Shown one piece after another: positions 5,034 to 40,244 of a stretch of DNA of 40,244 nucleotides. Every line of letters begins with the position of its first letter. Position 1 is the first letter of the stretch. The translations under genes and the position numbers were made by a program. The stretch comes from Actinomycetota bacterium. GTDB lineage: Bacteria; Actinomycetota; CADDZG01; JAHWKV01; JAOPZY01. Below the pieces are notes generated by a model, which did not search any database, was not told where the DNA came from, and saw nothing but the letters and a program-made list of their open reading frames with translations. The DNA lies in assembly GCA_025963875.1 (NCBI GenBank), contig JAOPZY010000175.1:1-40244 (forward strand), written 5' to 3'.

Positions 5034-5043
5034 GGTCGGATCC

Positions 5044-11509: not shown

Positions 11510-11526
11510 GCGGATAGGCTCAGAGC

Positions 11527-11802
11527 ATGGCCCAGCCGCTCCCAAAGACCAACGGCCTGGCCATCGCCGCCGTGGTCATGGGTATATCCGGCGTGCTCAG
11601 CGCCTGGCTCCTGCTTCCCTCGATCCTCGCCGTGGTGTTCGGTCTCGTAAGCCATTCCCAGATCAAGCGCTCAGCGGGGATGCAGGAGGGTCGGGGCCTC
11701 GCCATCGCCGGCCTCGTGCTCGGCGCCGACGGACTGCTGGTGGGACTGATCTGGGTGCTCGTCGTCGTCAGCTTCGGGGGCCTCCGCCTCCTGCCCGTCT
11801 AA
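11527..11802 (+). CDS. DUF4190-like two-TM membrane protein
   Basis: KTNGLAIAAVVMGI...ILAVVFGLVSHSQIKRS....GRGLAIAGLVLG pattern. Confidence 0.75.
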   Translation: MAQPLPKTNGLAIAAVVMGISGVLSAWLLLPSILAVVFGLVSHSQIKRSAGMQEGRGLAIAGLVLGADGLLVGLIWVLVVVSFGGLRLLPV

Positions 11803-23924: not shown

Positions 23925-24332
23925 TCAGGCGTGGACGGCGGCGGTGCGAAGTCCGCTCACCAGCCGGCGGCGACGGCGGCCCCGGATGAGGACGGCGCCG
24001 GTGGCCAGCCCGGCGAGCAGGATGGCGGCTCCTCCGGCGGCGGCCACCCGAGGGTCGGCGAGGCGGTCGCGCACTTCCCGGGCGGCGGCCACGTGCCGGC
24101 GGAGCCTCACCCGTGAGCGGACGGCGTCGATCGTCGCCGGCAGCAGCCAGGCTGGGGGCTCGATGGTCTGGGTCGCGAGGGCCGCAAGGGCACCCTGCAG
24201 ATCCCGGTAGGCATCCAGCTCGCCCCGGCAGCGGTCGCAGGTGCGCAGGTGGGCGTCGAGGGCACTGGCGGCGGGCCCACCGGACTGGTCGATGTAGGAC
24301 GGGATGTGCTGGGCTGCCTCACGACACTCCAC
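23925..24332 (-). CDS. Zinc-finger (zf-HC2/ZAS) membrane anti-sigma factor
   Basis: MECREA..HIPSYID...HLRTCDRC (HxxxCxxC), C-terminal TM helix followed by RRRRR; directly after the ECF sigma. Confidence 0.85.
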   Translation of the reverse strand: MECREAAQHIPSYIDQSGGPAASALDAHLRTCDRCRGELDAYRDLQGALAALATQTIEPPAWLLPATIDAVRSRVRLRRHVAAAREVRDRLADPRVAAAGGAAILLAGLATGAVLIRGRRRRRLVSGLRTAAVHA

Positions 24333-24334: not shown

Positions 24335-24943
24335 CTACTCCTCCTCTCCCTTACTTGGGCCCTTGCCCGGGCCGGTGGCCCTGGCTTGCGCCGGAGCTTC
24401 TTCCACCAGCATCTCCTTCAGTTTCTGGCGGGCACGATGGAGACGCACCTTGGCGGCCCCCTCGGAGATGCCGAGCTGGTTGCCCACCTCTGCGAGGGAG
24501 AAACCGTACACGTCCCGCATGACCACCACGGCCCGGTACCCCGCGGGAAGGGTCAGCAACGCCGAGTCGAGCCGCTCGGCAAGCTGCCGGCGGTCCAGCT
24601 CGGCGCCCGGATCACCCGATGCGGGAGCGTGCCAATCCTGCCACTGCTCGTTCTCCAGCGGAACCTCGTGACGCCGCCGGGCCCGCTTCCGCAGGCTCGT
24701 CATCGCCACGCTCGAGGTCACCCTGTACAGCCACGTCGAGAACTTGGCCTCGCCGCGGAAGGTCTTGATGGAACGCAGCAACCGTAGGTAGGTCTCCTGG
24801 GCGACCTCGGCTGCGTCGTCCGGATTCCCCGTCAGGCGGAGCGCCAGGGAGTACACGTCGCGCTGCGAGAGGCGAATCAGCTCCTCGAACGCTAGGGGGT
24901 CGCCCTGCTGGCATCTCTCGATGACCTCGGTTGGTACGTCCAC
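24335..24943 (-). CDS. ECF-family RNA polymerase sigma factor
   Basis: GDPLAFEEL, DAAEVAQETYLR...FRGEAKFSTWLYRV (region 2), LPAGYRAVVVMRDVYGFSLAEVG..LGISEGAAKVRLHRAR (region 4); GTG start at 24943 downstream of its promoter. Confidence 0.93.
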   Translation of the reverse strand: MDVPTEVIERCQQGDPLAFEELIRLSQRDVYSLALRLTGNPDDAAEVAQETYLRLLRSIKTFRGEAKFSTWLYRVTSSVAMTSLRKRARRRHEVPLENEQWQDWHAPASGDPGAELDRRQLAERLDSALLTLPAGYRAVVVMRDVYGFSLAEVGNQLGISEGAAKVRLHRARQKLKEMLVEEAPAQARATGPGKGPSKGEEE

Positions 24944-24965
24944 ACATTTCCTGCCTATCCCGTTT

Positions 24966-24991
24966 GACGAGCATGGTGGCAAAAGGTTACA
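24966..24991 (-). promoter_or_regulatory. Autoregulatory ECF promoter
   Basis: Minus strand TGTAACC-15 nt-CGTC just upstream of the sigma gene RBS. Confidence 0.65.
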
Positions 24992-26119: not shown

Positions 26120-27307
<1,188 letters not shown>

Positions 27308-27391
27308 CGCCTACCTCCAGGCACTTCTCATGTTGTGGAATCCAACCTCTACCTTTTTAGCTCCGACGTTCTGTGGAGCCACACGCTCGGG

Positions 27392-27463
27392 TAGCGGCGG
27401 GCGGATTCGAACCGCCGACACAGCGATTATGAGCCGCTTGCTCTACCACTGAGCTACGCCGCC
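27392..27463 (-). tRNA. tRNA-Met (CAT), probably elongator
   Basis: GGCGGCGTAGCTCAGTGGTAGAGCAAGCGGCTCATAATCGCTGTGTCGGCGGTTCGAATCCGCCCGCCGCTA; no initiator 3 G:C anticodon-stem signature; CCA not encoded. Confidence 0.92.
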
Positions 27464-27520
27464 AGATGCTACCAGACGGGGGGTTCGCCCCCGCCTGGCC
27501 CCAAACCCTAAACCCCTTTT

Positions 27521-27550
27521 CCTATCCGGCGCCTTGAGGGGCGCCTCGGG
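27521..27550. repeat. 30-nt REP-like hairpin, copy B (tRNA-Thr/tRNA-Met spacer)
   Basis: CCTATCCGGCGCCTTGAGGGGCGCCTCGGG. Confidence 0.7.
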
Positions 27551-27594
27551 GTGTGACCAGCCGCGTTCCGCTGTCCGTTTCGTGGCTGGTTCGG

Positions 27595-27667
27595 AGCCCC
27601 CTCGCGGAATCGAACCGCGGACACCGGCCTTACCATGGCCGTGCTCTACCGACTGAGCTAAGGGGGC
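27595..27667 (-). tRNA. tRNA-Thr (GGT)
   Basis: GCCCCCTTAGCTCAGTCGGTAGAGCACGGCCATGGTAAGGCCGGTGTCCGCGGTTCGATTCCGCGAGGGGGCT; CCA not encoded. Confidence 0.95.
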
Positions 27668-27794
27668 CACAAGAAACACAGAGGGCCGCGTGAAAATGAT
27701 AGCCGCTTTGCTGGAGACGCTGGCGGGGCGGTTCGGGGAGGTGCCCGGGGCGGTCGTTGCGGACCCCTCAGCGCGCGATTAGGGTGACGATCGG

Positions 27795-27819
27795 CCCGAG
27801 GCGCCCCTCAAGGCGCCGG
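27795..27819. repeat. REP-like hairpin, copy C (inverted)
   Basis: CCCGAGGCGCCCCTCAAGGCGCCGG is the exact reverse complement of 27526-27550 (25/25). Confidence 0.75.
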
Positions 27820-27852
27820 GTAAAGGGAGACGGGGTCAAAGGAGTCGAGGAC

Positions 27853-29952
27853 TTGCTTCACCGGTGGGCAGACCGCAGCCAGAGCAGGCGCCTCGTCTCC
27901 ATCCCCACACTCATGCTGGTTACGGCAACCACTACCGTCTCGGTCGCCTTCCTCGGGACGACGGCCGCGGAGGCCTCCACCAGCCCCATGACCAGCCTCG
28001 TCGCAGCGCCGGCGAACCTCACGGTGGGACAGTCCACGCAGCTCACGGCGACGATCAGCCGGGCGCCCGCCTTCCTCGGCGACAGCGACGTGGTCGTGTC
28101 CTTCACGATCGTCTCCGGCGGGAATGCCGGGACCTCGATCCCAAACTGCGTCATCCCGGCCCTTTTGGTTCTTGCCGGAACTAGCTGCACCACGAGCTAC
28201 TCCGGCACCCAGTCCGGCACGGACACGATCCAGGCCAGCGCGGGAGCCGGCACCACGTCGGCGACGGTGACGTGGCAGGGGATCCCCTCCTCCATCGTCA
28301 TGAGCCCCGCCGTCTCCTACAACTCGACCGGCCAGACCGCCAACGTCGCTGCCACGGTGTTCGACCGCCAGGGCAAGCCCGTGCAGGGAGCGACCGTGGC
28401 CTTCACGGTGACCGGGCCCGGGGCCATCTCCGGCAGCCACCCCACCGACAACTCGGGCGTCGCCCCCTTCTCCTTCAGCTCCTCGGCCCCGGGCCAGTCC
28501 TCCATCATCGCCAGCGTGGCCGTCGGGTCGGGCTCGATCACCGGCCATGCCCTGGCCAACTGGGCGGGACCCCCGAGCCAGGTGACCCTGAGCCTGTTCG
28601 GAGCCACCCAGTCTGCGGGCGGGCGGGCCCCTCTCAATGGAAATGCCACGGTCGCTGCGGCGGTCACCGACTCCGGCGGGATCCCCGTCGGGGACAACAC
28701 CGCGGTCAACTTCACCGTCACGGGCGCCGGCAGCTCCACCGGGAGCGCGCCAACCTCCGAGGGCAAGGCCGTGTTCTCCTTCGGGTCGGCGGTCACGGGC
28801 ACATCGGTCGTCACCGCCTCGGCCCCCCCGGCCCCGACCTCCAACTCCGTGACCGTCACCTGGGAGACCCCGGTGGCCAAGACCGTCACGCTGGCTCCGA
28901 AACAGACGCGTGCGGCGGTGGGGACGAACCACATTGTCGTCGCCACCGTGACCGACCAGTTCGGGCAACCCTTCCCCGGCGCCCTGGTGCGATTCATCCT
29001 CCTGGGAGCCAACGCCGCCAAGACAACGTCGTCGTTCACCACGCTGGCCGATGGGAGGGCGGCCTTCCTCGACCGGGGGCAGAACGTCGGTATCGATACG
29101 GTCATAGCTTTTGTCGATCTCCAGAACAGCGGCACTCCCGACCCGGGGGACCCCGCCGATACCGCGAACATCTTCTGGCAGCAGCAACCGGGGCAGGGGT
29201 ACTGGCTGGCGGCGTCGGACGGGGGCATCTTCAATTACGGGCCTTCCACGTCGTTCGAAGGATCGACGGGGTCGATCCGGCTCAACCAGCCGATCGTCGG
29301 GATGGCGCGCACCCCGACGGGCTTGGGGTACTGGCTCGTGGCGTCGGACGGGGGCATCTTCGCCTTCGGCGATGCGGTCTTCCGGGGCTCGACCGGGTCG
29401 ACCCGCCTGAACAAACCCATCGTCGGGATGGCGGCGACGCCCGACGGGGGCGGCTACTGGCTGGTGGCGTCGGACGGCGGCATCTTCGCCTTCGGCAACG
29501 CCGCCTTCCAGGGGTCGACTGGGTCGATGCATCTCAACCAGCCGATCGTCGGGATGGCGTCGTCCCCCGACGGCGGTGGCTACTGGCTGGTCGCCACCGA
29601 CGGCGGGGTCTTCGCCTTCGGCAACGCCGCGTTTCAGGGGTCGACCGGGTCGACCCGCCTGAACAAACCCATCGTCGGGATGGCGGCGACCTCGAGCGGG
29701 GCCGGATACTGGATGGCGGCGTCGGATGGGGGCATCTTCAACTTCGGGGATGCCGCCTTCTTCGGCTCCGCAGGTTCGATCAGGCTCAACCAGCCGGTGG
29801 TCGCCATCGGGGCGATCCCCGACGGCAGCGGCTACTACCTGGCAGCATCCGATGGCGGGGTCTTCAGCTTCCCCGCCTCGGCCACCAACTTCGGCTCCGC
29901 CGCGGGGGCCCCGCTGAACAAGCCGGTGGTCGCCGTGGCGATCGCTCCCTGA
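27853..29952 (+). CDS. Secreted/surface protein: signal peptide, about four Ig-like (invasin/Big_1-type) domains, six GYWLVASDGG repeats
   Basis: Hydrophobic N-terminus ending AEA; repeated 'ATV.D..G.PV.G..V.F.V.G' and 'VTW' Ig motifs; six C-terminal repeats of about 42 aa; TTG start at 27853 after GGAG/GAGG (start uncertain). Confidence 0.8.
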   Translation: MLHRWADRSQSRRLVSIPTLMLVTATTTVSVAFLGTTAAEASTSPMTSLVAAPANLTVGQSTQLTATISRAPAFLGDSDVVVSFTIVSGGNAGTSIPNCVIPALLVLAGTSCTTSYSGTQSGTDTIQASAGAGTTSATVTWQGIPSSIVMSPAVSYNSTGQTANVAATVFDRQGKPVQGATVAFTVTGPGAISGSHPTDNSGVAPFSFSSSAPGQSSIIASVAVGSGSITGHALANWAGPPSQVTLSLFGATQSAGGRAPLNGNATVAAAVTDSGGIPVGDNTAVNFTVTGAGSSTGSAPTSEGKAVFSFGSAVTGTSVVTASAPPAPTSNSVTVTWETPVAKTVTLAPKQTRAAVGTNHIVVATVTDQFGQPFPGALVRFILLGANAAKTTSSFTTLADGRAAFLDRGQNVGIDTVIAFVDLQNSGTPDPGDPADTANIFWQQQPGQGYWLAASDGGIFNYGPSTSFEGSTGSIRLNQPIVGMARTPTGLGYWLVASDGGIFAFGDAVFRGSTGSTRLNKPIVGMAATPDGGGYWLVASDGGIFAFGNAAFQGSTGSMHLNQPIVGMASSPDGGGYWLVATDGGVFAFGNAAFQGSTGSTRLNKPIVGMAATSSGAGYWMAASDGGIFNFGDAAFFGSAGSIRLNQPVVAIGAIPDGSGYYLAASDGGVFSFPASATNFGSAAGAPLNKPVVAVAIAP
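29197..29949 (+). repeat. Six tandem coding repeats of about 126 nt (GYWLVASDGGIFxFGxAxFxGSTG..LNxPIVGMA)
   Basis: Directly visible in both protein and DNA. Confidence 0.9.
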
Positions 29953-29964
29953 AAGGTCTCGGCC

Positions 29965-30198
29965 ATGGCAAAGCGTGAGGATCCCCCCGGCGAGCGGGTC
30001 GTGCTCGGGCGCAAGACCCCGGACGGCATGGTCCGGTTCCAATGGACGGGGGTCGAGCCGGAGGGCCTCGACAGCACGGATTTCGCGCTCTCGTGTGGCG
30101 CGGTCTGGGAGGGGGACGAGCTGGTCACCCACAACCTCCTGGCCTTCGAGCACAACATCCGCCACTCGATCGACGGGTTCCTCGAGGACTCGGACTGA
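29965..30198 (+). CDS. Hypothetical protein (77 aa)
   Basis: ATG 12 nt after the upstream stop; GC3-rich codons; no recognised motif. Confidence 0.6.
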   Translation: MAKREDPPGERVVLGRKTPDGMVRFQWTGVEPEGLDSTDFALSCGAVWEGDELVTHNLLAFEHNIRHSIDGFLEDSD

Positions 30199-30779
30199 GC
30201 GCCGGGGAGGACCAGCCGCCGGTCCCGCCCCCTGTCCCGCCCGGCAGCGGGGAGACGATAATCCGGCGTGGCGGCCTTCCGCGGCCGCCGCCTCCCGAGC
30301 CGCCGCGGCCCCCGCAACCACCCGGCTGGCGGCGATGGCGTACCGGGATGCTGGCGATCGGCGCCGTCGCCATCATTGCGGCTGTCATCACCGTCGTGGT
30401 CGTTGGCGGCGGGAAGCCCGGCCCCAAGCCCACGCCCGGCCCCCCGCCATCCCCGGTGGCCTCCGCCGGCGGCCCGACCGGGTTCCGGGCGGAGGACCAC
30501 GGAAGCACCGTGGACCTGTTCTGGAACGACAACTCCGGAGGGGCGGCGAGCTACTTCATCGTGTACCGCAGCGTCGACGGCCCGCAGCAGACCGTCTCCG
30601 TCCCGCAAGGCAGGACCATGGAGGAGGTGACGCAACTCGATCCCACGAAGGGGTACTGCTTCCGCCTCGGGGCGGTCATCCCGCAGGGCTCGGGGACCAC
30701 GACCGCCTCCGCGGACACGAGCGTGCGCGGCTGCATCGCCGCCAGCCCCGGCACGACCCCTTCCAGCACTGCGACGTAG
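30195..30779 (+). CDS. Pro-rich single-pass membrane protein with an extracellular fibronectin type III-like domain
   Basis: Pro-rich N-terminus, TM (MLAIGAVAIIAAVITVVVVGG), PTGFRAEDHGSTVDLFW...Y.IVYR...LDPTKGYCFRLGAV FN3 pattern; start uncertain (CTG at 30195 overlaps the upstream TGA). Confidence 0.65.
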   Translation: MSAGEDQPPVPPPVPPGSGETIIRRGGLPRPPPPEPPRPPQPPGWRRWRTGMLAIGAVAIIAAVITVVVVGGGKPGPKPTPGPPPSPVASAGGPTGFRAEDHGSTVDLFWNDNSGGAASYFIVYRSVDGPQQTVSVPQGRTMEEVTQLDPTKGYCFRLGAVIPQGSGTTTASADTSVRGCIAASPGTTPSSTAT

Positions 30780-30822
30780 GTCCCGGGGAAGCCGGCGGGC
30801 GGCGGCTGGGGGAGATCTCCAG

Positions 30823-30853
30823 TCTTGAGTCCTTCAAGAAGTGCGGCTAAGCT
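30823..30853 (+). promoter_or_regulatory. Promoter of the T7SS-like operon with an inverted repeat over the -35
   Basis: TTGAGT-17 nt-TAAGCT; TCTTGA-N5-TCAAGA at 30823-30839. Confidence 0.55.
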
Positions 30854-30919
30854 GCTTGTCTTGACCGTCTAATCTGGAGGTCTGGCAGGCCGAACCACCG
30901 CCCCAACAAGGAGGTCCCC

Positions 30920-31507
30920 GTGACAGTCATCCGCGTGAACCCCGACAGTGTCCGCCAGTACGCCGGCGCCGCCCAGCAGCAGTTCGACACCATCCGTGTC
31001 GAGCTCCAGGGCCTGGTGAACGACGCGACCACCGTCCGGTACTTCGGGCCCAACTCCGTCGACTTCAAGACCCACTGCGGCCAGATGGCGTCCGACTTCG
31101 GCCGTCGCCTCGCCCAGGATCTCGGCCAGATCGCCGACGCCGTGCGATCCTCGACGACCGCGATCGCCACGTCGCTCGGCGGCGCCCCCATCTCGATGTC
31201 CGTCAACGGCGCGCCGATCCCGCTGCCCACGGTTCCCGCCGGCGACGGTTCGGTGGAGATCGACACGTCCGGACTCGAGGGCCTCAAGCCCGTCGTCGGC
31301 CGCCACATCGACGCCATCACCGCCCAGATCGACGCACACCTCCGCAACCTGCAGAACACCGACTGGCAGGGCCAGGCCAAGGAGACCGCCGTCACCGCAG
31401 TTTCCGGATTCAGCAACGCTGCCAAGAACCTCGCCAGCGACGCACGGACCTCGATCACGTCGTACATCGACAGGCAGATCAACCTCGTGCTCGCCGGGGA
31501 CCGCTGA
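30920..31507 (+). CDS. Tandem double WXG100-like protein (T7SS substrate)
   Basis: Two helical halves of about 90 aa: IRVNPDSV...YFG and VEIDTSGL...DWQGQA, joined by a Pro/Gly linker; AAGGAGG RBS; first gene before an FtsK ATPase. Confidence 0.72.
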   Translation: MTVIRVNPDSVRQYAGAAQQQFDTIRVELQGLVNDATTVRYFGPNSVDFKTHCGQMASDFGRRLAQDLGQIADAVRSSTTAIATSLGGAPISMSVNGAPIPLPTVPAGDGSVEIDTSGLEGLKPVVGRHIDAITAQIDAHLRNLQNTDWQGQAKETAVTAVSGFSNAAKNLASDARTSITSYIDRQINLVLAGDR

Positions 31508-31543
31508 GACGCGGCGTTCGCTCATGGCGGGACCGAGGTAGGC

Positions 31544-34500
31544 GTGGAGCTTCTCGTACGCCTCCGCGCTGAGGGGGCGGAGCACGACCTGCGCATCGAT
31601 GCAGACCCTCAGGTGCGCGTCGATGCGCTGGCCCGCGACCTCGCCGCCCGCTACTCCCGACTCGCACCCGGCGGCCCTCCGCCCGGGCTCTACCGCGGCG
31701 CCACAGGCGAGCGATTGAATCCGGCGGCCTCCCTCGGAGCCGCCGGGCTGCTGTCCGGCGACCTGCTGGTGGGGGGCATGCCGCCCGAGCCCCCGGCCTC
31801 GTCGCCCCCCAGCGGCAGCGACGGGATCTGCCTCGACATCGTCGCCGGGCCGGAGGCAGGCCGCAGCGTCGTCCTGTCGCCGAGGCGGTATCTCGTGGGC
31901 CGGGCCGACGAGGGCGACATCACCATCGCCGACCCGACCGTGTCCCGGCGCCAGCTCACCATCGAGGTCCGGCGGGGGGCGCCTCCGGTCATCACGCCGG
32001 AGCCCGACGTCGCGAACCCGCTGCTGCTCGACGCGGTCCCCCAGACGGCGCAGTTCGAACTCGGCGACGACTCGGTCATCCAGGCGGGGGCCACGGCGTT
32101 TGTGATGCGCCGGTTCACGCGCTCCGTCGAGGAGCCGCGGGACCGCCTGGGCCAGGTGCCGTTCCACCGGACGCCCTACCGCCCCTCCCTGATCACCACG
32201 CGGACCTTCGAGCCGCTCGGCGACATCCCGAAGATGCCGGACCGGCGCCGCTTTGCCCTGCTCACCGCGGTCGCGCCGCTCGGTGGCGGGCTCCTGATGT
32301 ACGCCTTCTCTCGCCAGCCACAGTTTCTCGCCCTCACGGCGCTCACCCCGGTCACCGTGGTCGCGAACTGGTTCGAGGACCGCCGATCGGGCAAGGGGAA
32401 ATACCAGAGCGACGCCAAGCACTTCCGCGAATTGGTGGCCGAGCGGCGCCGGGAGGTGGACGCTGCCCTCCAGGCCGAGCGGGTCGAGCGGATGCGTGCG
32501 GCCCCGGACGTGGCGGACCTCGCCCGGCGTGCGGAGTTCCGGACCATCGACCTCTGGCCCCGCGGCCGCGAGGCGGAGGACTTCATGGCGCTGCGGGCCG
32601 GCATCGGCAACGTGGCCTCCAAGGTCAGCGCCCCCATCGGCGCCCAGGGCGAGAAGGACCTCCGGGACGAGGCGGCCAGGACCCTGGCCGGGCACGAGGA
32701 GCTGCGTGCCGTGCCCGTGGTCGCCGACCTGGCCAAGCTGGGCACGCTCGCCCTCCACGGCGAAGACCCGCTCGTGGAGCGGGTGGCGGCGTCGCTCATC
32801 ATCCAGGCGGCCACCCTGCACAGCCCGGAGGACCTGGTGATGCTGGGCGGCCTGTCGCCGTCACGCCAGCTCACCGACCAACTGAAGTGGGTGCCCCACA
32901 CGAGGACCCTCAACTCCCCCGTCGCCGGGCCGCACGTCGTCAGCGACCCGGAGGGCGTCCAGGCGCTCTGCACCGAGCTCGTGGCCGTGGCCGGTCGCCG
33001 CACCGCCGGCGCCCAGCGCGACATCGACCGGCGGTGGCCGTGGCTGCTCGTCGTCCTCGACGCATCGCTCGAGCCCGACCCCGCCCTGGTGGCCCAGATC
33101 CTCGACCGGTGCCCGTCCGCGGGGATCTCGGTCCTGTGGCTCGGCCGCTCGGTCAGGGTCCCCCGCCAGGCGCAGGCGGTGATCAACTGCATCGCGAGCG
33201 ACATCGGGCCATCCGAGCTGTGGTTCCGGGACCCGGCGATGCCATCCATGCGCCTCGAAGTCGAGCCGGTGCAGCCGTCGGTGACGGACCGGGCGATGCG
33301 GGCGCTGGCGCCGCTGCGGGATGCCAGCGCGGCGCATGCCACCAGCGCCATCCCGCGAACGGTCCCCCTGTTCGCCGCCCTGGGCCTCGACGACGCAGCT
33401 GCCGCGCCGGAGTCGCTGGCCCAGCGCCTCGTGGAGCGCTGGTTGGTGGACCGCGGCTACTCGCTGCAGGCACCCCTCGGCATCACGGCCGACGGCATCA
33501 TGCAGCTCGACCTCGTCAACGACGGTCCGCACGCACTCATCGGCGGGACCAGCGGGTCGGGCAAGAGCGAGCTCCTGGTGGCGCTGGTCGCCGGGCTCGT
33601 CGCCAACTTCTCCCCCACCCGGCTCAACCTCCTGTTCGTCGACTACAAGGGGGGCGCCGCCAGCGCTGCCTTCAAGGACGCCCCGCACACCGTCGGCTAC
33701 GTGACCAACCTGAACGGCGACCTCGCCACCCGGGCGCTGGTGTCGTTGCGAGCGGAGCTGAACCGCCGGATGCAGCTCCTCGAGGGCAGGGCGAAGGACC
33801 TGGAGGAGATGCTCGCCGAGCACCCGGAGGAGACGCCTCCGAGCCTCGTGATCGTGGTGGACGAGTTCGCCACGCTGGTGAAGGAGGTGCCGGACTTCGT
33901 GCCGGGCATCGTCGACATCGCCCAGCGGGGGCGCAGCCTCGGCATCCACCTCATCCTCGCCACGCAGCGGCCGTCCGGGTCGGTCAACGACAACATCCTC
34001 GCCAACACCAACGCCCGCATCTCGCTCAGGATGCTCGACGCTGCGGAGTCCAACTCGATCATCGGCCGTCCCGACGCCGCCACGATCCCCGTCCCGCTGC
34101 GGGGCCGGGCCTTCGCCCGGCTCGGGCCCGGCGAGCTCGTCGCCTTCCAGTCCGCCTACGGCGGCACGCCACTCGAAGCGGAACAGACGCTGCACCTGCA
34201 CATCGACGACTTCGTGGTCGGAGGAGCGGGCGGCGCCGGTGGCCAGAAACGTAGCCGGAGCCCCTCGGGGGCGGGCCGCGCCGGCCCAGCGGGACCGACC
34301 CAGCTCGAAGCGCTGCTCGACGGGGTGGCTGCGGCGTTCGACCATCTCTCGTTGCCGAGGCCCAAACCACCCTGGCTCAACGAGCTGCCGGTTTCCGTGG
34401 GACTCGCCGATGTCCTCACCGGCGTCGAGCCGGGCGGCAGCGGCATGGCCGTCACCTTCGGAATGTACGACAACCCCGTGCGCTCCGAACAGGGGACGGC

Positions 34501-35995
34501 GGTGGTGGACCTCGAGGACGGCGGCGGGCTGCTCGTCTTCGGCTCCGGAGGGTCCGGCAAGACGACGGTGCTGCGGACGCTGGCGGCCTCTGCTGTCCAG
34601 ACCGCCGGGCCGGCGGGAGTCACCATCTTCGCCATCGACTTCGCCTCACGCTCCCTCCGGACGCTCGAAGCGCTCGACCAGACGGCGGTGGTGGCGCCGG
34701 GCGACGACCTCGAGTCGGTGACGCGCGTGATCAGCATCCTGGAGACCGAGACCCGGCGGCGGCGGGCGCTCCTCGGCGGGGCCGAGACGCTGTCGGCCCA
34801 CATCGCCGACGGCGGCACCCCGCTCCCGCGGGTGCTGCTGCTCGTGGACGGCTACACCGCCATGCGGGACACCTTCCAGGGCGAGGGCACCTCCGCCGCG
34901 ATGCAGGGGTACCTCGACCGCTTCCACCGCGTCGTCACCGAAGGCCGCCAGGTCGGCATCCACACCGTGATCACCGCGGACCGGGCAGGGGCGGTCCCGC
35001 CCGTCCTGTACTCGTCGGTGGCCCGCCGCCTGATCCTGCGGCAGGTGGACGAGCGGGGGCTCACGGAACTCGGCGTGCCGCCGGCCCGCGCCAGGGGCCT
35101 GGAACTCGGCCCGGGCCGGGGCCTGCTCGACGCCGAGTTGCTCGTCCAGGTCGCCCACACCGGCAGGGACGGCGACGACGGCGCCGCGCAGGCGGCGGGG
35201 CTGCGGGCAATCGGGTTGTCGGCCCGCGGCAGCGTGCCCCCCGAGCTCGCGGCACGGCCACTGCTGGAGCAGGAGCCGCTGGCCCGACCGCCGGCGAACC
35301 GGCCGATGACGGCCGTGTTGGGGGTGGCCGACGTGACCCACGACCCGGTCGCGGTGGACTTCTCCGAGGGCCATCTCCTCGTCGTCGGACAGAGCAGGTC
35401 CGGGCGGAGCACCGCACTGGCTGCCGTGCTGGCCTCGCTCGTCCAGCGGGGAGCGGACGTCTACGTCGCCGGGCTTGGCTCCTCCCCTCTCCGCCACCTG
35501 GAGCTGCCGGGGCGGACCGCCTTCGGCGACCCCAGCGAGCTGGCTTCCCAAGCGGGCGAGCTGCTCGGGGTCATCCAGACCTACCCCGAGGTCCCGAGGG
35601 TGCTGGTGATCGACGATGCCGACCGGTTGCTGGAGGACACTGCGGTCGCCGCCGCGTTCGACCCACTGGCCAGATCCGATGCCGTCAGGTTCGTCGCGAG
35701 CCTGGAGACCTCGAGCGTCGTGGCCGGGTACTTCCAGAGCATGCTGATGCAGCAGCTCAAGAAGGTGCGGCGCCGCCTGCTGCTGCAGCCGGTGGACGAT
35801 GGCGAGACGCAGACCGTGATCGGCAGCCGCTTCCCCCTGCGACCCGGTCTGGCCATGCCGCCGGGTCGCGGTGTGCTGCTGGCGGACCGGACACCCGTGA
35901 TCATCCAGGTCGGCGTCGGTGCCGCGGCGCTCCATCCCGCCGTCGCAGGGGCACCGGCCGGCGAGGCTCGGATCGGCCGACGAGTCAGGGGGTAG
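31544..35995 (+). CDS. Type VII secretion FtsK/SpoIIIE ATPase (EssC/EccC-like) with N-terminal ubiquitin-like and FHA domains
   Basis: SLGAAGLLSGDLL (YukD/EsaB-like); VGRADEGDITIADPTVSRRQ (FHA); two TM helices; Walker A GGTSGSGKS / GSGGSGKT / GQSRSGRS; VDYKGG, IVVDEF, GRSLGIHLILATQRP. Confidence 0.9.
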   Translation: MELLVRLRAEGAEHDLRIDADPQVRVDALARDLAARYSRLAPGGPPPGLYRGATGERLNPAASLGAAGLLSGDLLVGGMPPEPPASSPPSGSDGICLDIVAGPEAGRSVVLSPRRYLVGRADEGDITIADPTVSRRQLTIEVRRGAPPVITPEPDVANPLLLDAVPQTAQFELGDDSVIQAGATAFVMRRFTRSVEEPRDRLGQVPFHRTPYRPSLITTRTFEPLGDIPKMPDRRRFALLTAVAPLGGGLLMYAFSRQPQFLALTALTPVTVVANWFEDRRSGKGKYQSDAKHFRELVAERRREVDAALQAERVERMRAAPDVADLARRAEFRTIDLWPRGREAEDFMALRAGIGNVASKVSAPIGAQGEKDLRDEAARTLAGHEELRAVPVVADLAKLGTLALHGEDPLVERVAASLIIQAATLHSPEDLVMLGGLSPSRQLTDQLKWVPHTRTLNSPVAGPHVVSDPEGVQALCTELVAVAGRRTAGAQRDIDRRWPWLLVVLDASLEPDPALVAQILDRCPSAGISVLWLGRSVRVPRQAQAVINCIASDIGPSELWFRDPAMPSMRLEVEPVQPSVTDRAMRALAPLRDASAAHATSAIPRTVPLFAALGLDDAAAAPESLAQRLVERWLVDRGYSLQAPLGITADGIMQLDLVNDGPHALIGGTSGSGKSELLVALVAGLVANFSPTRLNLLFVDYKGGAASAAFKDAPHTVGYVTNLNGDLATRALVSLRAELNRRMQLLEGRAKDLEEMLAEHPEETPPSLVIVVDEFATLVKEVPDFVPGIVDIAQRGRSLGIHLILATQRPSGSVNDNILANTNARISLRMLDAAESNSIIGRPDAATIPVPLRGRAFARLGPGELVAFQSAYGGTPLEAEQTLHLHIDDFVVGGAGGAGGQKRSRSPSGAGRAGPAGPTQLEALLDGVAAAFDHLSLPRPKPPWLNELPVSVGLADVLTGVEPGGSGMAVTFGMYDNPVRSEQGTAVVDLEDGGGLLVFGSGGSGKTTVLRTLAASAVQTAGPAGVTIFAIDFASRSLRTLEALDQTAVVAPGDDLESVTRVISILETETRRRRALLGGAETLSAHIADGGTPLPRVLLLVDGYTAMRDTFQGEGTSAAMQGYLDRFHRVVTEGRQVGIHTVITADRAGAVPPVLYSSVARRLILRQVDERGLTELGVPPARARGLELGPGRGLLDAELLVQVAHTGRDGDDGAAQAAGLRAIGLSARGSVPPELAARPLLEQEPLARPPANRPMTAVLGVADVTHDPVAVDFSEGHLLVVGQSRSGRSTALAAVLASLVQRGADVYVAGLGSSPLRHLELPGRTAFGDPSELASQAGELLGVIQTYPEVPRVLVIDDADRLLEDTAVAAAFDPLARSDAVRFVASLETSSVVAGYFQSMLMQQLKKVRRRLLLQPVDDGETQTVIGSRFPLRPGLAMPPGRGVLLADRTPVIIQVGVGAAALHPAVAGAPAGEARIGRRVRG

Positions 35996-35997
35996 AC

Positions 35998-36438
35998 ATG
36001 CAGGCGAACAAGACCGACCTCAAATTCGACTACCAGGGTGCGCTGAATCTGGCCCGCCAGCTCAACAGCCTCGCCGACCAGGTCGCTCACGCTGCCACCA
36101 CCCGCCAGGGACTCGCCGATGTCGCCAAGAAGGACTTCGCCGGGGCCTTCGCCGACCAGTTCAACTCCCGGATGAGTGTCGAGCAGACCAACTTCAAGGC
36201 AGTCGGGCAGGGCCTGCGCAGCGACGCCATGGACCTCGCCACGATGTGGAAGCACGCCATGGAGGAGGAGAACCGGCGCCTGTACGCCCGCCACGTCGAC
36301 GACATGAAGAACAACCGCAGCGTCCTCGACACCATCGGGGACTGGTTCACCGGCTTCCACTACCCCCCGGAGCCGGCGGCCGTCCCGCTTCCGCAGCCAC
36401 CGGCCTTCACCCCGACGGCCCAGCTGGTGCACTACTGA
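35998..36438 (+). CDS. WXG100-like helical protein, likely secretion partner of the Rhs toxin
   Basis: DLKFDYQGALNLARQL...DFAGAFADQF (FxG at the WXG position); Pro-rich tail; 2 nt after the essC-like gene. Confidence 0.65.
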   Translation: MQANKTDLKFDYQGALNLARQLNSLADQVAHAATTRQGLADVAKKDFAGAFADQFNSRMSVEQTNFKAVGQGLRSDAMDLATMWKHAMEEENRRLYARHVDDMKNNRSVLDTIGDWFTGFHYPPEPAAVPLPQPPAFTPTAQLVHY

Positions 36439-36458
36439 TGCGGTTCGGCTCTGGCCGG

Positions 36459-36511
36459 CAGAGGTCGGGAGCGTTTCGCGCGTATACGCGCGATTCCCAC
36501 CCAACTTCGGA
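36459..36511. repeat. About 53-bp imperfect palindrome, copy 2
   Basis: Contains the perfect 18-bp palindrome TCGCGCGTATACGCGCGA (36476-36493) within GAGGTCGGG...CCCAACTTC arms. Confidence 0.65.
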
Positions 36512-36526
36512 ACGGCTGCGCTCCAG

Positions 36527-39500
36527 ATGAGCACCACCTCGGGGGACCCCCGCAACCTCAACCACTTCCTCGAGGGGTCCGGGCCGCTGCGGGGCCGGCT
36601 GAACGAGGCCGCCCAGGCGGCGGTGGCGGCGTTCAACGCCTTCGTCGCCACGGGATCGGCCGCCGGGGGGTCGCTCGGCGGCCTGCAGGCCCTCATCCAG
36701 CTGCTCTCGGACATGGGGGCCAACGAGGCGTTCGTCCACTCGATCACCGAGGCCCTGGCGGCGGCCGACCGAAGCGGCCTCGGGGTCGTCAGCGTCTCCG
36801 ACGCCACGCTGGCCGCCCACCTGAAGGCCGACGGGGTGGGGGCCGCCCCCTCCTACATCACCGTCGGCCCGTCCTCGCTCATGGGCCTCCCGCCCACCTC
36901 GGGGTTCGTGGACGACCCGGTGTGCGCCCTCACGGGCAACTTCTTCCACGCCGAGGTCGACCTGTCGTTCCCGGGCAGGGCCGCCCTGCTCGACCTCGCC
37001 CGCCACTACAACTCGCTCGCATCCGGGCGGGTGGGGGCCTTCGGGGCGGGCTGGACCTCTGTGCTCGACATGGCGCTGGTGGCGGGGGCGGGCGAGGGGA
37101 TTACCGTGGCGCTGGCCGACGGGGCCGAGATCGGCTTTCTCGCCGGCGACGACGGGGTGCTTCGCCCCGAGACCCGCCCGAGCCTCTCCCTCGCGCACCT
37201 CGACGACGGGACCTGGGTGCTCGCCGACGGTCCCGCCTCTGCGGCTGCGGCGTGGCGCTTCGACGCCACCGGCACGCTCACGGGGTACTCCCGGGGCCGC
37301 TCGCAGGTTGCGGTCGAGCGCTCGGAGGGGCGGGTGGTGGCCCTGGTGGAGGCCTCCAGCGGGCGGCGGGTCTCGGTGTCGTGGGAGGGGGGCCGTGTGG
37401 CCTCGGCGACCTCGAGCGACGGGCGGTCGGTGGCCTACGCCTACGACGACGGGGGGCACCTCGTTTCGGTGTCCCGCCCCTCGGGCGGGGTCTCCTACCG
37501 CATCGAGTCGGGGCTCGTCGCAGCCGTGGTCGACGCCGACGGGGTCGAGTTGGTCTCCAACGTCTACGACGGGGCGGGGCGGGTCGCCCGCCAGCGCTCC
37601 TCCTTCGGGCGGGTCTCGCTCTACGCCTACTCCGACCACGGCCTCACGGTGGTCACCGACGAGGCGGGATCGGCCCGCAACGCATTCGTGCACGACCGGC
37701 GGGGCAACCTCACGTCGATGGTCGACGCCTACGGGCGGGCGATGCGGATGCGCTACGACGCCTCGGGACGGGTGGTCGGCTTCACCGAGCGCCGGGGCGG
37801 GACCTGGGAGGTCGCCTGGGACGAGGCGGGGAGCAGGCCGGTTCGGCGGGTGGGCCCGGAGGGCTTCGAGGAGTCCTTCGAGTGGGACGGGTCCGGGCGC
37901 ATCGTGGGCCACCACCTGCCGTCGGGGACCACCCGCTGGTCCTACTCGGCGCCTGGGCACGCCACCCCCTCGCTGATCGTCGACCCCGACGGGGCCTCCA
38001 CGCACGTCGAGGTCTCCGACGACGACCTGGCGCTCTCGGTCACCGACGCCGACGGGGTGCGAGTGCAGATGTCCTACGACGCCGACGGCCAGATCGCCAC
38101 GGTCACCGATGCCCTCGGCAACGTGACGCTTCTCTCCTACGACGCCTACGGCAACCTCGCCGCCTGGCGCTTCCCCTCGTCGATGACGGTGTCCTACGAG
38201 GCGGATGCGGCGGGGCGGGTCCTGAGGGCCGTCACCCCCAAGGCGAGGTGGAGCTACGAGTGGTCTCAGGCGGGCCGTGCGCTGGCGGGGGTGGACCCCG
38301 CCGAGGGGCCGTGGCGGGCGAGCTTCGGGGACCACGGGGCGCTGGCCTCGATCTCAGACCCCACCGGGGCGGCCACGGGCTTCTCCTACGACGCCTACGG
38401 CAACGTCGTCGAGATCGCCGGGGCCGACGGGAGGCTCTACCGCCAGGGCTTCGACGGGCTCTCCCAGCTCGTCTCGGTCACCGACCCCGGGGGCTCCACC
38501 TGGTCCTACGAGCACGACCCCGAGGGCGAGCTGGTCGGGATCGTGGAGCCGACGGGGGCGGCGACGAGGAGGGTGGTCGACCTGCTCGGGCGCACCACCG
38601 AGGAGGAAGACGGCGCCGGGAGGACCTGGCGGCGGGTCTGGGGGGCCGACGGGCGTGTCGCCGAGGTCGTCGACCCGGCGGGCCGGGCGCTCTCCTACCG
38701 CTACGACGCCTCGGGGAGGCTGGTGGAGGTGGCGGACCCCGACGGTCCCCTGGGGGAGCTCTCCTGGTCGGCTGCGGGCAGGCTCTCCTCCCGGCGGGAC
38801 GCCTCGGGGGCCGAGACCCGGTTCCGCTACGACGCCGCAGGCCGGCTGGTGGGCGTCGCCGACGACGAGGGGTCGCTCTCCTTCGTGCTCGACGTCGACG
38901 GGCGGGTGGCGCGCGCCGTGGACGAGCGGGGGCGGGTGCTTGTCGTCGAGCGCGACGAGGCTGGCAGGGTGACCAGGGTGGTCGACCGCCGTGGGCGGGT
39001 GCGCCACGTCGACCTGGACGATGCGGGACGCCCCCGCCGGGCGGGGACCGGGCCCGTCGCTGCGGCGTTCTCCTACGACGAACGGGGCCTGCTGGGCACC
39101 GCCGCGGATCCCCTCGGGGCGACGACGAGGTTCTCCTACGACACCGCCGGGCGCATCGCCTCGGCGACGGACCCGCTCGGGGGGACCACCCGCTACGGCT
39201 ACGACCCGGCGGGGCGCCTCGGCTCGGTCACCGACGCCCTGGGGGCCACCTCCCGGCTCCTGCGGGACCCCACGGGTGAGCTGGTGGGCGTGGCGTGGCC
39301 CGACGGGGGCGGGCGGCGGCGCTGGGTCGATCCGTCGGGGGCAACGGTGGGCTTCTCGGAGCTGGGGTCCTCGCAGCCCTCGGTGACCGTCGAGCTCGAC
39401 CCGGCGGGACGTCCGGTGGGCCTTCCATCTCGTCCCGGGACGGCCAGGCTCCCCCGGCGCAGCGACCCCGGCGAGCTTCCCCTCGACGAGGTGGGGCGCG

Positions 39501-40244
39501 TCTCGGCCAGCCCGGCGGGCGACCTCTACCGCCACGACGCCGACGGCCAGCTCGTCGAGTGGGTGGCCCCCGGCAGGCGGGCGGTGTCGTACCGCTATGA
39601 CCTTGGGGGCCGCCTGGTGTCGGAGGGTACCGGTGCGTCCGAGGTCTCGTACGAGCACGACGCCCTGGGGCGGCTGCTGCGGCGGGTCGACGCCGGTGGC
39701 TCGACCACCACCTACGGCTACAACGCCGCCGGGGAGCGGACCTCCGAGGAGGGGCCTTCGGGGTCGGTCGCCTACACCTGGGACGCCGCAGGCAGGCTGG
39801 CGGGCATCGGCCGTGGATCCGAGCGCACCGGGATCTCCTTCGACAACCTCGGGTTCCCGGTGTCGGTGGGCGGCGTGGAGGTGTCCTGGGACCTGAGCGG
39901 CGCCTGGCCGAGGGTGTCGTGGATCGGGGAGGTCTCCTACGAGTGGGAGGGCAATCAGCTCTTCGCCGTGGGCCCCGACGGCTCCCGGGAGGCCGTGGCC
40001 CTGGACTGGGCGGGCAGCGCCGGGGAGGTCCTCGATCCCTGGGGGACCTCGTCGGGGAGCGGGGTGCGACTCGGCTACCGGGGCGAGCTGTGCATCGACC
40101 ACCTGGTGTGGCTGGGTGCCCGGCCCTACGACCCCGCCACCCGCTCGTTCCTGGCGCCGGACCCGCTCCCGAACCCGCCGGGGGCGCCGTGCGCCGCCAA
40201 CCCCTACCACTACGCCTGGAACGACCCGGTCAGCCTGCTCGACC
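36527..40244 (+). CDS. Rhs/YD-repeat polymorphic toxin (3' truncated by window end; not in the ORF track)
   Basis: Translated by hand from ATG 36527 and spot-checked in frame to the end: helical N-term, GFVDDPVCALTGNF...RHYNS...FGAGWTS (DUF6531-type), many YD repeats, Rhs core LGYRGEL..LVWLGARPYDPATRSFLAPDP...NPYHYAWNDPVSLLD. Confidence 0.9.
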   Translation, partial: MSTTSGDPRNLNHFLEGSGPLRGRLNEAAQAAVAAFNAFVATGSAAGGSLGGLQALIQLLSDMGANEAFVHSITEALAAADRSGLGVVSVSDATLAAHLKADGVGAAPSYITVGPSSLMGLPPTSGFVDDPVCALTGNFFHAEVDLSFPGRAALLDLARHYNSLASGRVGAFGAGWTSVLDMALVAGAGEGITVALADGAEIGFLAGDDGVLRPETRPSLSLAHLDDGTWVLADGPASAAAAWRFDATGTLTGYSRGRSQVAVERSEGRVVALVEASSGRRVSVSWEGGRVASATSSDGRSVAYAYDDGGHLVSVSRPSGGVSYRIESGLVAAVVDADGVELVSNVYDGAGRVARQRSSFGRVSLYAYSDHGLTVVTDEAGSARNAFVHDRRGNLTSMVDAYGRAMRMRYDASGRVVGFTERRGGTWEVAWDEAGSRPVRRVGPEGFEESFEWDGSGRIVGHHLPSGTTRWSYSAPGHATPSLIVDPDGASTHVEVSDDDLALSVTDADGVRVQMSYDADGQIATVTDALGNVTLLSYDAYGNLAAWRFPSSMTVSYEADAAGRVLRAVTPKARWSYEWSQAGRALAGVDPAEGPWRASFGDHGALASISDPTGAATGFSYDAYGNVVEIAGADGRLYRQGFDGLSQLVSVTDPGGSTWSYEHDPEGELVGIVEPTGAATRRVVDLLGRTTEEEDGAGRTWRRVWGADGRVAEVVDPAGRALSYRYDASGRLVEVADPDGPLGELSWSAAGRLSSRRDASGAETRFRYDAAGRLVGVADDEGSLSFVLDVDGRVARAVDERGRVLVVERDEAGRVTRVVDRRGRVRHVDLDDAGRPRRAGTGPVAAAFSYDERGLLGTAADPLGATTRFSYDTAGRIASATDPLGGTTRYGYDPAGRLGSVTDALGATSRLLRDPTGELVGVAWPDGGGRRRWVDPSGATVGFSELGSSQPSVTVELDPAGRPVGLPSRPGTARLPRRSDPGELPLDEVGRVSASPAGDLYRHDADGQLVEWVAPGRRAVSYRYDLGGRLVSEGTGASEVSYEHDALGRLLRRVDAGGSTTTYGYNAAGERTSEEGPSGSVAYTWDAAGRLAGIGRGSERTGISFDNLGFPVSVGGVEVSWDLSGAWPRVSWIGEVSYEWEGNQLFAVGPDGSREAVALDWAGSAGEVLDPWGTSSGSGVRLGYRGELCIDHLVWLGARPYDPATRSFLAPDPLPNPPGAPCAANPYHYAWNDPVSLLD

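Follow-up and report, generated by a model that had tools for sequence, protein, structure and literature searches.

Subtype d among type VII secretion systems (T7SSs), T7SSd, was described for Olsenella and Bifidobacterium (Garrett, Higginson and Palmer 2024; PMC11217815), and in the portions of that article drawn on here it is a system of Actinomycetota with an EssC-type ATPase that carries an FHA domain. Its further parts, in the same portions, are TsdD, a membrane Ser/Thr kinase, TsdH, a protein with a single transmembrane helix, and TsdI, a giant immunoglobulin-like (Ig-like) protein with a signal peptide and, at its C-terminus, a transmembrane helix (PMC11217815). T7SSd is presented there as the only subtype that has no ubiquitin-like protein, and Rhs proteins with small WXG100-like partners are placed at T7SS loci of subtypes a to d (PMC11217815). 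The subject of this report is a locus of four genes, which we call D, E, F and G, at the end of a contig from an Actinomycetota bacterium (JAOPZY010000175.1). By the window we mean the whole stretch of 40,244 nucleotides (nt) that was analyzed. We consider it likely that the locus is a compact type VII (Esx-type) export module with a polymorphic Rhs toxin as cargo. It is an actinobacterial variant of known T7SS toxin-export systems and not a wholly new machine, and the Rhs protein is very likely the cargo of a T7SS-type ATPase with a WXG100 partner. The genes, with lengths in amino acids (aa), are as follows.

30920-31507, + strand: gene D, 195 aa, a single-chain tandem WXG100 protein
31544-35995, + strand: gene E, 1483 aa, an ATPase of the EssC/EccC family
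35998-36438, + strand: gene F, 146 aa, a partner protein without a family
36527 to beyond 40244, + strand: gene G, an Rhs protein, 1239 aa inside the window, 3' end open

An earlier note on this DNA, made from the sequence alone, had proposed four co-directional genes with short gaps, and these are real: all four lie on the + strand (30920-40244), the GC content at third codon positions is 0.92-0.95 in each, and the D-E, E-F and F-G spacings measure 36, 2 and 88 nt. The same note began the operon at 30823, which is intergenic; the first gene, D, begins at 30920 with the start codon GTG and has the Shine-Dalgarno sequence AAGGAGG 6 nt upstream. That note had also counted one promoter; a sigma-70 scan of 27300-40244, uninformative for high-GC actinobacteria, returned no promoter-like sites, and a terminator scan returned a single weak hairpin at 30843-30855.

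Like T7SSd, the locus belongs to an actinomycetote and encodes an EssC-type ATPase, an N-terminal FHA domain retaining residues of the phosphothreonine pocket, a WXG100 core protein, no separate ubiquitin-like protein, and an Rhs protein with a small partner alongside; kinase and giant Ig-like genes are found near relatives of the window's ATPase. It differs from T7SSd in that the window holds no TsdD kinase and no homologues of TsdH or TsdI (two genes upstream, A and C, resemble TsdI and TsdH by architecture only), and in its Acidimicrobiia-like lineage. Unlike T7SSd as described, it has a ubiquitin-like domain in cis on the ATPase and a WXG100 protein that is a tandem in a single chain. This likeness is to T7SSd as its published description gives it.

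The T7SSb of Bacillota consists of YukB/EssC, YukD/EsaB, YukC/EssB, EsaA, EssA, EsxA, LXG toxins and Lap partners. In the passages of PMC12637312 drawn on here, free B. subtilis YukD stabilizes the complex with YukB, binding its FHA, DUF and D1 hairpin, and those of PMC10327511 link an Rhs protein to a Listeria EssC variant. With T7SSb our locus shares an FHA-bearing ATPase, a ubiquitin-fold component, a candidate targeting domain at the N-terminus of the toxin, small partners upstream and, as in Listeria, a probable Rhs cargo. Unlike T7SSb, it has one FHA domain on the ATPase and not two, the ubiquitin fold is fused to the ATPase, EssA, EssB/YukC and EsaA/YueB are absent from the window, and there is no LXG match in Pfam. 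In the T7SSa (ESX) systems the ubiquitin-fold domain that contacts EccC belongs to EccD, according to the same portions of PMC12637312. An EccC-family motor, a heterodimer-like four-helix WXG100 unit and a ubiquitin-fold domain are common to ESX and the locus; EccC of ESX has no FHA domain, whereas E has one, no EccB, EccD, EccE or mycosin (MycP) was found in the window or among the flank proteins scanned from related loci, and EsxA and EsxB, two genes in ESX, correspond to the one chain of D.

The ATPase E matches FtsK_SpoIIIE of Pfam in three stretches (E-value 3e-50). Its best NCBIfam models all score below cutoff (EssC, 493 bits with a cutoff of 778; EccCa, 314 with 509; EccCb, 252 with 347), and we therefore regard E as a divergent member of the family. 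Among solved structures in the PDB it scores 213 bits against 4nh0, which we take to be an actinobacterial EccC chain (its deposited title is 'Cell division FtsK/SpoIIIE'), 207 against B. subtilis YukB and 139 against mycobacterial EccC5. Because the scores against 4nh0 and YukB are about equal, E is no closer to T7SSb than to T7SSa. More than 200 homologues with 40-99% identity were found, for the most part in Acidimicrobiia; those with names are assigned to Ilumatobacter, Desertimonas, Microthrixaceae, Acidimicrobiales or plainly to Actinomycetota. The domains of E are given below.

31544-31777, + strand: residues 1-78, ubiquitin-like (YukD-like) beta-grasp domain, from the model
31820-32119, + strand: residues 93-192, a single FHA domain, all-beta in the model
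32243-32374, + strand: residues ~234-277, membrane anchor with one clear helix, probably two
33488-35995, + strand: three P-loop (FtsK) domains

Residues 1-250 of E were modeled from a 27-sequence alignment, with a mean predicted local distance difference test score (pLDDT) of 85.3. The ubiquitin-like unit has strands at 2-9 and 12-19, a helix at 26-37 and strands at 48-51 and 74-78 (pLDDT 80-97), which is a beta-beta-alpha-beta-beta order within residues 1-78. The YukD family of Pfam (PF08817) matches 10 of the 27 homologous N-termini at E-values of 1 or less, the best being 2.7e-5. For wider comparison we used 80 related loci, taken from species-representative genomes with at most 10 kb per side and found with an alignment of 20 ATPase homologues; this set excludes the window's closest relatives, whose ATPases are 77-99% identical to E. 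A hidden Markov model (HMM) of E residues 1-82 matches the ATPase open reading frame (ORF) in 70 of the 80 loci, the ATPases of Arthrobacter, Nocardioides, Aeromicrobium and Specibacter among them (E-values 1e-5 to 1e-8), and 7 of the 10 ATPases without a match are truncated by contig ends. The FHA domain is matched by Yop-YscD_cpl (8e-10) and FHA (2.5e-4) of Pfam at residues 99-189. The top Foldseek matches of the 1-250 model are FHA domains (3po8, E-value 1.8e-8), with template modeling scores relative to the target of 0.87-0.90, and they dominate the output to the point of crowding out any ubiquitin-fold matches. The domain retains a G119-R120 pair and the Ser of 'TVSRRQ', and a Gln replaces the His of the family consensus. 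The anchor has a hydrophobic segment at 237-255 with a model helix at 234-248; the second, weaker hydrophobic stretch at 258-277 was read from the sequence. The Walker A motifs are GTSGSGKS at residue 668, GSGGSGKT at 1000 and GQSRSGRS, with Arg for Lys, at 1282, and the Walker B-like motifs of the three ATPase domains D1, D2 and D3 are VVDE, VDG and IDD, so that D1 is the only fully canonical domain. Pfam, Foldseek, the model and the three Walker A motifs bear out the domains that the earlier note had assigned to the ATPase (ubiquitin-like, FHA, transmembrane, three FtsK), the ubiquitin-like one by the model and by Pfam matches of homologues, and E has the three P-loops and the membrane anchor of an EssC/EccC-family ATPase, as a T7SS requires.

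Near-equal scores against YukB and 4nh0 (again taken as EccC), and one FHA domain where T7SSb has two, do not bear out the 'T7SSb-like' label of the earlier note, which had seen in the locus a stripped-down T7SSb-like machine of an undescribed kind, dedicated to one Rhs toxin. Some results do favor that view: E has an FHA domain, its highest-scoring single NCBIfam model (493 bits) is that of the Firmicute EssC, and T7SS accessory genes are absent from the window. 'Acidimicrobiia' and 'type VII secretion' were not found mentioned together in the open-access literature searched, and the supplements of PMC11217815 may list the clade. Against it also stands a core that is not specific to Rhs, as we describe below, and the literature has an actinobacterial T7SSd of the FHA type next to which an Rhs is encoded (PMC11217815, in the portions drawn on here). 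The word 'undescribed' does not hold either, since T7SS-linked Rhs toxins and the FHA-type T7SSd are in print in that article and RHS-bearing T7SS toxins of actinobacteria were predicted in 2012 in the part of PMC3482391 consulted. Taken as a whole, the T7SSb-like proposal seems to us distinctly unlikely, and the reading that we prefer remains a compact Esx-type export module, an actinobacterial variant of known T7SSs, with an Rhs cargo.

The second component expected of a T7SS, a WXG100 helical-hairpin protein encoded with the ATPase, is D. Its AlphaFold model, made from a 25-sequence alignment (pLDDT 90.7, predicted template modeling score 0.86), consists of two helical hairpins, 8-37/46-85 and 116-145/152-194, with a linker of 30 residues between them. 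The turn of the first hairpin reads YFGPN, and the second hairpin has W149-x-G151, invariant across the 25 sequences. The WXG100 model of Pfam scores D at 27.3 bits, exactly the cutoff. Profile searches against the PDB gave weak matches of residues 1-87 to S. aureus EsxA (2vs0, E-value 0.0077) and of residues 127-194 to M. tuberculosis EsxB (3fav, E-value 0.096). The double WXG100 protein of the earlier note is thus upheld, by Pfam at its cutoff for the family and by the model and motifs for the tandem nature, and D is the probable core equivalent of EsxA/EsxB. The note's remark that normally separate parts are fused here also holds: a YukD-like domain and an FHA domain are on the ATPase, and two WXG100 hairpins are in one chain. 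We did not find a tandem single-chain WXG100 protein described in the open-access literature searched, where PMC3935865, in the part consulted, mentions tandem genes only; nor did we find a ubiquitin-like-FHA-EccC fusion named there.

The strength of the assignment comes from examining how the four genes travel together. By tblastn with the window proteins, D is matched in 28 of the 80 loci, F in 12, the Rhs protein in 15 and Rhs residues 1-130 in 9. HMM searches extend these counts for D to 43 loci, of which 32 are strong matches (E-value < 1e-25), beside the ATPase, and for F to 19; the HMM of the Rhs N-terminal domain matches in 12. Six of the 11 weak D matches are ORFs of ~90-150 aa in loci of Arthrobacter, Specibacter and other Actinomycetes-type genomes, five of these six belonging to a family of ~93 aa whose representative has no Pfam match; the other five are ORFs of 200-245 aa in Acidimicrobiia loci. 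Wherever the Rhs N-terminal domain is present (12 loci), F is the gene directly upstream of it, and the end of F abuts or overlaps the beginning of Rhs in the relatives. Several arrangements were observed, and we give individual loci by number. L008 and L002 have D-E-F-G; L017 and L025 have E-D-F-G; L006 (Ilumatobacter nonamiensis YM16-303), L012, L013, L023 and L003 have D-F-G-x-x-E; and at L010 and L015 Rhs, F and D are transcribed divergently from E. L043 also has F and D divergent from E, with the Rhs gene further upstream and on E's strand. The linkage is thus kept across four gene orders and where the ATPases are only 37-52% identical to that of the window. The linkage of D, E, F and Rhs is not by chance, and comparing synteny across homologous loci, a check that the earlier note had suggested, shows it recurring in 12-15 of the 80.

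These counts also define which genes make up the core. An Rhs gene occurs within 10 kb in 15 of the 80 loci only, and at least 17 of the 32 loci with a strong D carry the core without an Rhs gene at that distance. Since D accompanies E with or without Rhs, we count D as a part of the core, and the adjacency in 12 of 12 loci means that F accompanies the Rhs N-terminal domain. The claim of the earlier note that the system is dedicated to an Rhs toxin is therefore not supported, the ATPase and tandem WXG100 core being present in 32 loci. The loci with a core and no nearby Rhs would also suit the explanation in which a T7SS core has Rhs and F for passengers, owing to chance or to a common regulation, and the Rhs protein leaves the cell by another route such as lysis or an unknown exporter. 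The 88-nt gap between F and G in the window, which means that there is no translational coupling at that point, would fit it as well, and export and binding of the Rhs protein are predicted from genes alone. It is opposed by the linkage at 37-52% ATPase identity in four gene orders, by fusions of F to Rhs, by the modular use of the N-terminal domain on other cargo and by the lack of a Sec signal, and the literature already links Rhs to T7SS in subtypes a to d (PMC11217815, in the portions drawn on here). We judge the passenger explanation very improbable. That the Rhs protein is very likely cargo of the T7SS-type ATPase with its WXG100 partner, as the earlier note had in substance proposed, follows from the linkage in 12-15 of 80 loci, from F always being upstream and from F-Rhs fusions in 12 of the 150 matches listed.

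The Rhs protein begins with a domain that we consider a candidate T7SS targeting domain.

36527-36886, + strand: G residues 1-120, family-specific N-terminal domain, candidate T7SS targeting domain

No Pfam family, LXG included, matches residues 1-120 in any of 12 members, and F has no Pfam or NCBIfam family at curated level. In the F family, WXG100_2 of Pfam matches 3 of 22 members weakly (E-value ~0.04). A motif 'DWxGxYxxQF' with a central WxG-like element runs through the family (in the window it reads DFAGAF, that is, FAG for WxG), the tail 'PPxFxPTAxLVxY' is conserved, and the language-model (Atlas) look-alikes of F include T7SS_signal/WXG100 clusters at 0.92, which we treat as a lead only. 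The 'WXG100-like' label that the earlier note gave to F finds no support in family models; the WxG-like motif and the look-alikes are all that speaks for it. For F and for the Rhs N-terminal domain, a homology with WXG100, LXG or D at the level of sequence was considered and set aside, as Pfam, a PDB profile search and hhalign returned nothing significant. Given these null results in profile-profile comparison, we call F 'WXG100-like' and the N-terminal domain 'LXG-like' by analogy only; the likeness to LXG toxins and Lap is functional, with no LXG on Rhs residues 1-120.

A profile of the N-terminal domain was searched against 1.84 billion representatives, and the best 150 of 192 matching proteins were examined. 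The 192 have E-values of 1e-3 or less, 72 of them 1e-10 or less and 8 of them 1e-30 or less. Nearly all of the 150 listed are matched from residue 1 onward. Twelve of these 150 representatives are fusions in which an F domain precedes the Rhs N-terminal domain, and DUF6531 and then RHS come after this tag. Among them are P0283 (1583 aa) and P0285 (1983 aa), both full-length, as well as P0252, P0292 and eight others. Such gene fusion argues for a joint function of F and Rhs. A Pfam scan of 59 carriers of the domain (230-1100 aa) found DUF6531 and/or RHS in 36, many of which are probably fragments, other cargo in 5 (Abhydrolase_8 in two, DUF2515 in two, DUF6973 in one) and no Pfam family in 18. 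Its position at residue 1 and its occurrence on non-Rhs cargo make the domain a modular N-terminal tag. WXG, LXG and LDxD domains are the N-terminal tags of T7SS toxins in the part of PMC3482391 consulted. F is a candidate targeting adaptor for Rhs and may be a functional analogue of Lap.

The remainder of G has the parts of an Rhs polymorphic toxin, namely a DUF6531 plug at 130-204, a shell of RHS_repeat in 14 stretches (5e-104) and the Rhs-associated core (Rhs_assc_core) at 1170-1239, which covers profile positions 2-72 of 76. Inside the window the protein ends with '...NPYHYAWNDPVSLLD', one residue short of the 'P' of DPxG as found in P0160. This relative (1551 aa) is 78% identical to G over all 1239 residues and continues past the end of G with 'PSGLRP...' for 305 further residues. 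G has no hydrophobic signal-like N-terminus and no PAAR or VgrG match in Pfam, in line with the earlier note, which had described an Rhs protein of over 1239 aa without a signal peptide or a PAAR or VgrG-type N-terminus; Pfam and hydrophobicity agree on this. Rhs effectors of type VI secretion include PAAR-Rhs proteins with Eag chaperones, and WapA is exported by Sec. G resembles these proteins in its DUF6531 plug, YD-repeat shell, DPxG core and the expected arrangement of a variable toxin at the C-terminus followed by an immunity gene. It differs from them in the absence of PAAR, VgrG and signal peptide, in its N-terminal domain and in its predicted exporter.

What follows the DPxG motif can be read in the relatives, in the following regions.

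P0160, residues 1247-1551: post-DPxG region
P0163: post-DPxG region
L006, 7564-8430: post-DPxG region
L008, 9370-10266: post-DPxG region
L013, 7750-8883: post-DPxG region
L023, 7740-8861: post-DPxG region

In most relatives a conserved stretch, LRPxSxEExDxIRxxEExGRLGQAWEAIKxDPWGT, is followed by a glycine-rich hydrophobic segment of ~100-150 aa. Both elements and then variable ends are present in P0160, P0163, L006, L008, L012, L013, L023 and L044, while L017, L025, L026 and L043 have a different linker and a similar hydrophobic stretch. The linker and hydrophobic segment have no Pfam family; the segment may be a membrane-entry or pore-forming module carried in the shell. Pfam scans of the relatives' Rhs C-termini found Stv on P0163 and HHH_3 on L017 and L025, and left the nine other proteins or C-terminal pieces without a match. 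In L015, a fragment of an Rhs protein (3852-5537) has a DddA-like deaminase domain. Candidate immunity genes are the ankyrin-repeat genes just downstream of Rhs in L008 (10271-10897) and L026 (14246-15463) and a DUF6572 gene beside the Rhs end in L043 (7255-7605). Polymorphic toxins and their immunity genes typically show this arrangement of variable C-termini with adjacent genes.

Several results weigh against the export-module reading. Foldseek with the model of D returned only generic four-helix bundles such as Dps, at E-values of 0.01 or more, and the window's own ubiquitin-like domain has no Pfam YukD match. No curated family covers F or the Rhs N-terminal domain, and hhalign gave a probability of 1% or less for F against D, for the N-terminal domain against D and for the N-terminal domain against F. 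No kinase or phosphatase that could feed the FHA domain is encoded in the window. The toxin domain and immunity gene fall beyond the window end. Finally, F-like genes are present at 7 loci where no Rhs N-terminal domain was detected, so that F may have a wider role.

As to their position, the F-like genes that have no detected tag nearby adjoin the ATPase or D; they are found in L004, L007, L020 and L021 (upstream of the ATPase, on the opposite strand) and in L010 and L043.

Accessory proteins were sought in the window and in the flanks of the related loci. EccB, EccD, EccE, MycP, EssA, EssB and EsaA have no match among the proteins of the 40-kb window (Pfam and NCBIfam), which bears out the earlier note on the lack of T7SSa and T7SSb accessory genes there. 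The same families are absent from 38 representatives of the families that recur around the ATPase (Pfam) and from 76 further neighbor proteins of 16 loci, these being 76 of the 110 unclustered ORFs of at least 90 aa. The families that do recur beside the ATPase in the 80 loci are listed below.

Transglutaminase: 24 loci
Ser/Thr kinase: 18 loci
MoxR AAA protein: 17 loci
Big_9/fn3/cadherin protein of 1320 aa: 17 loci
Cytosolic protein of 234 aa: 15 loci
Protein of 449 aa: 11 loci
FHA proteins: 8 loci
PP2C: 5 loci

'Stripped-down', as the earlier note put it, suits this locus and the flanks of its relatives as far as accessory genes are concerned; it does not suit the relatives in so far as they often have kinase, PP2C, FHA, MoxR, transglutaminase and giant Ig-like genes. 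The locus is compact, which can be stated at the level of the locus only, and its self-sufficiency is conjectural.

The recurrent neighbors are the parts list of Esr, and overlap the kinase and Ig-like parts of T7SSd. Esx-Esr threat sensing was described in Actinomycetes in a preprint (Wang et al. 2026; PMC13622651); in the portions drawn on here, FHA output proteins are fused to EccC, EsrA combines Ig-like domains and propeller-like repeats with a Sec signal, and Esr is effectively confined to the class Actinomycetes. Our loci share with Esr the FHA domain fused to EccC and, in the relatives, neighboring genes for MoxR, a transglutaminase, a kinase, a phosphatase, FHA proteins and giant Ig-like proteins; the window differs in having no MoxR, vWA, transglutaminase, kinase or phosphatase family. 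Beside Acidimicrobiia ATPases we found Esr-like sets of MoxR, transglutaminase and giant Big_9/fn3 genes (L006, 14228-24211; L012, L013, L023, L026 and L066); L006 has PP2C in addition, and L012, L013 and L023 have FHA proteins. These sets contrast with the confinement to class Actinomycetes stated in that part of PMC13622651.

Such neighbors give weight to the explanation that the locus is the ATPase-plus-substrate part of a larger T7SS, whose partners (TsdD/TsdH/TsdI, Esr-type or EccB/D/E-type) lie downstream or elsewhere in the genome, so that the machine is not minimal. The kinase, MoxR, transglutaminase, Big_9/fn3/cadherin, PP2C and FHA genes correspond to the components of Esr and T7SSd listed in the portions of PMC13622651 and PMC11217815 drawn on here, the window ends inside Rhs, which leaves its downstream side out of view, and two genes upstream of D recall T7SSd and Esr parts in their architecture.

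27838-29952, + strand: gene A, secreted Ig-like protein with six-bladed repeats; association uncertain
29965-30198, + strand: gene B, 77 aa, no family; association uncertain
~30243/30348-30779, + strand: gene C, Pro-rich N-terminus, one transmembrane helix and a weak fn3 match (E-value 0.003); association uncertain

A has a signal-like hydrophobic segment at 19-40, Big_1 in three stretches and six repeats of 42 aa, encoded as a 126-nt tandem array at 29197-29950, and no C-terminal transmembrane helix; its Atlas look-alikes hint at a propeller of the SMP-30/RCC1 type (0.87), again a lead only. In its signal, Ig-like domains and propeller-like repeats A is like EsrA, and unlike Esr its repeats are C-terminal and it has no homologue in the 80 loci. 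A thus resembles EsrA or TsdI, and C resembles TsdH, in architecture only, EsrA, TsdI and TsdH being known to us from the text of the papers. Genes A, B and C were considered as conserved parts of the system and set aside, tblastn matching them in 0 of the 80 loci; we keep them as 'uncertain', the closest relatives of the window lying outside that set. Besides this missing conservation, the larger-T7SS explanation has against it that none of the recurrent neighbor families is in the 40-kb window, that the 38 representatives and 76 neighbor proteins include no EccB/D/E, mycosin, EssA/EssB or EsaA, and that the recurrent neighbors look regulatory and not channel-forming. We would put its chances slightly below even.

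The opposite extreme is that the whole translocon consists of two genes, the ATPase with its ubiquitin-like and FHA domains and the single-chain EsxA/EsxB equivalent, with no EccB/D/E or EssA/EssB/EsaA partner, and with F and the ~120-aa domain, as a targeting pair not defined before, recruiting Rhs and other cargo. We hold this strict form to be rather doubtful. Under the export-module reading that we prefer, E would be the membrane-anchored translocase, with the canonical P-loop of D1 powering export and the degenerate D2 and D3 probably serving substrate binding or regulation. By analogy with B. subtilis, the YukD-YukB contact would be made in cis by the fused ubiquitin-like domain of E, an arrangement that makes sense structurally. 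The FHA domain could take a kinase signal, since the Arg and Ser of the phosphothreonine pocket are kept. D would be a covalently linked four-helix bundle of the EsxA/EsxB kind, acting as core co-secreted substrate or as cofactor. F and Rhs residues ~1-120 together may be the targeting signal by which the toxin is docked on the ATPase, as Lap does with LXG, a proposal suggested by the adjacency, the fusions and the modularity of the domain. The Rhs shell would enclose the C-terminal toxin, cut at DPxG, with the toxin and its immunity gene past the window end.

The general picture that T7SSs export polymorphic toxins, Rhs included, is unchanged by these results. Acidimicrobiia are abundant soil, freshwater and marine actinobacteria, and the clade described here is common in them. 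If the ATPase and the tandem WXG100 protein suffice for export, this would be the simplest natural T7SS and a clean system for the minimal-channel question, and the fusion of ubiquitin fold and FHA to the ATPase together with a single-chain EsxA/EsxB would be a natural experiment on which contacts are obligatory. F and the N-terminal domain would add a targeting signal beside WXG, LXG and LDxD, and would aid in finding T7SS cargo in uncultured actinobacteria. As the ubiquitin-like HMM matches 70 of 80 ATPase ORFs, those of Arthrobacter, Nocardioides and Aeromicrobium included, the 'missing' ubiquitin-like part of T7SSd may be fused to the N-terminus of its ATPase, and such fusions may account for the apparent lack of this protein in T7SSd.

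The rest of the window is made up of the following.

1-40244: high-GC actinobacterial chromosome segment, GC 64-76%
1-27300, - strand: ribosomal protein genes, fusA, rpoC, rpoB, nusG, secE, tuf, an SDR (short-chain dehydrogenase/reductase) gene and a pair of extracytoplasmic function (ECF) sigma and anti-sigma factor genes
27389-27667: tRNA-Met and tRNA-Thr

An Rfam scan returned two tRNAs and nothing further, and a repeat search returned the coding repeats of gene A and of Rhs and no others. From 27667 to the end of the window, genes A, B, C, D, E, F and G are all on the + strand. The ECF sigma factor (24335-24982) and its zf-HC2 anti-sigma factor (23925-24332), both on the - strand, lie between secE/tRNA-Trp and the SDR gene. 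Inside the - strand ribosomal/rpoBC cluster, between rpsL/rpsG and rpoC, two + strand genes at 10583-11802 encode a 308-aa protein with AbiEi_4 and MTES_1575 (restriction-endonuclease-like) matches and a 91-aa DUF4190 membrane protein.

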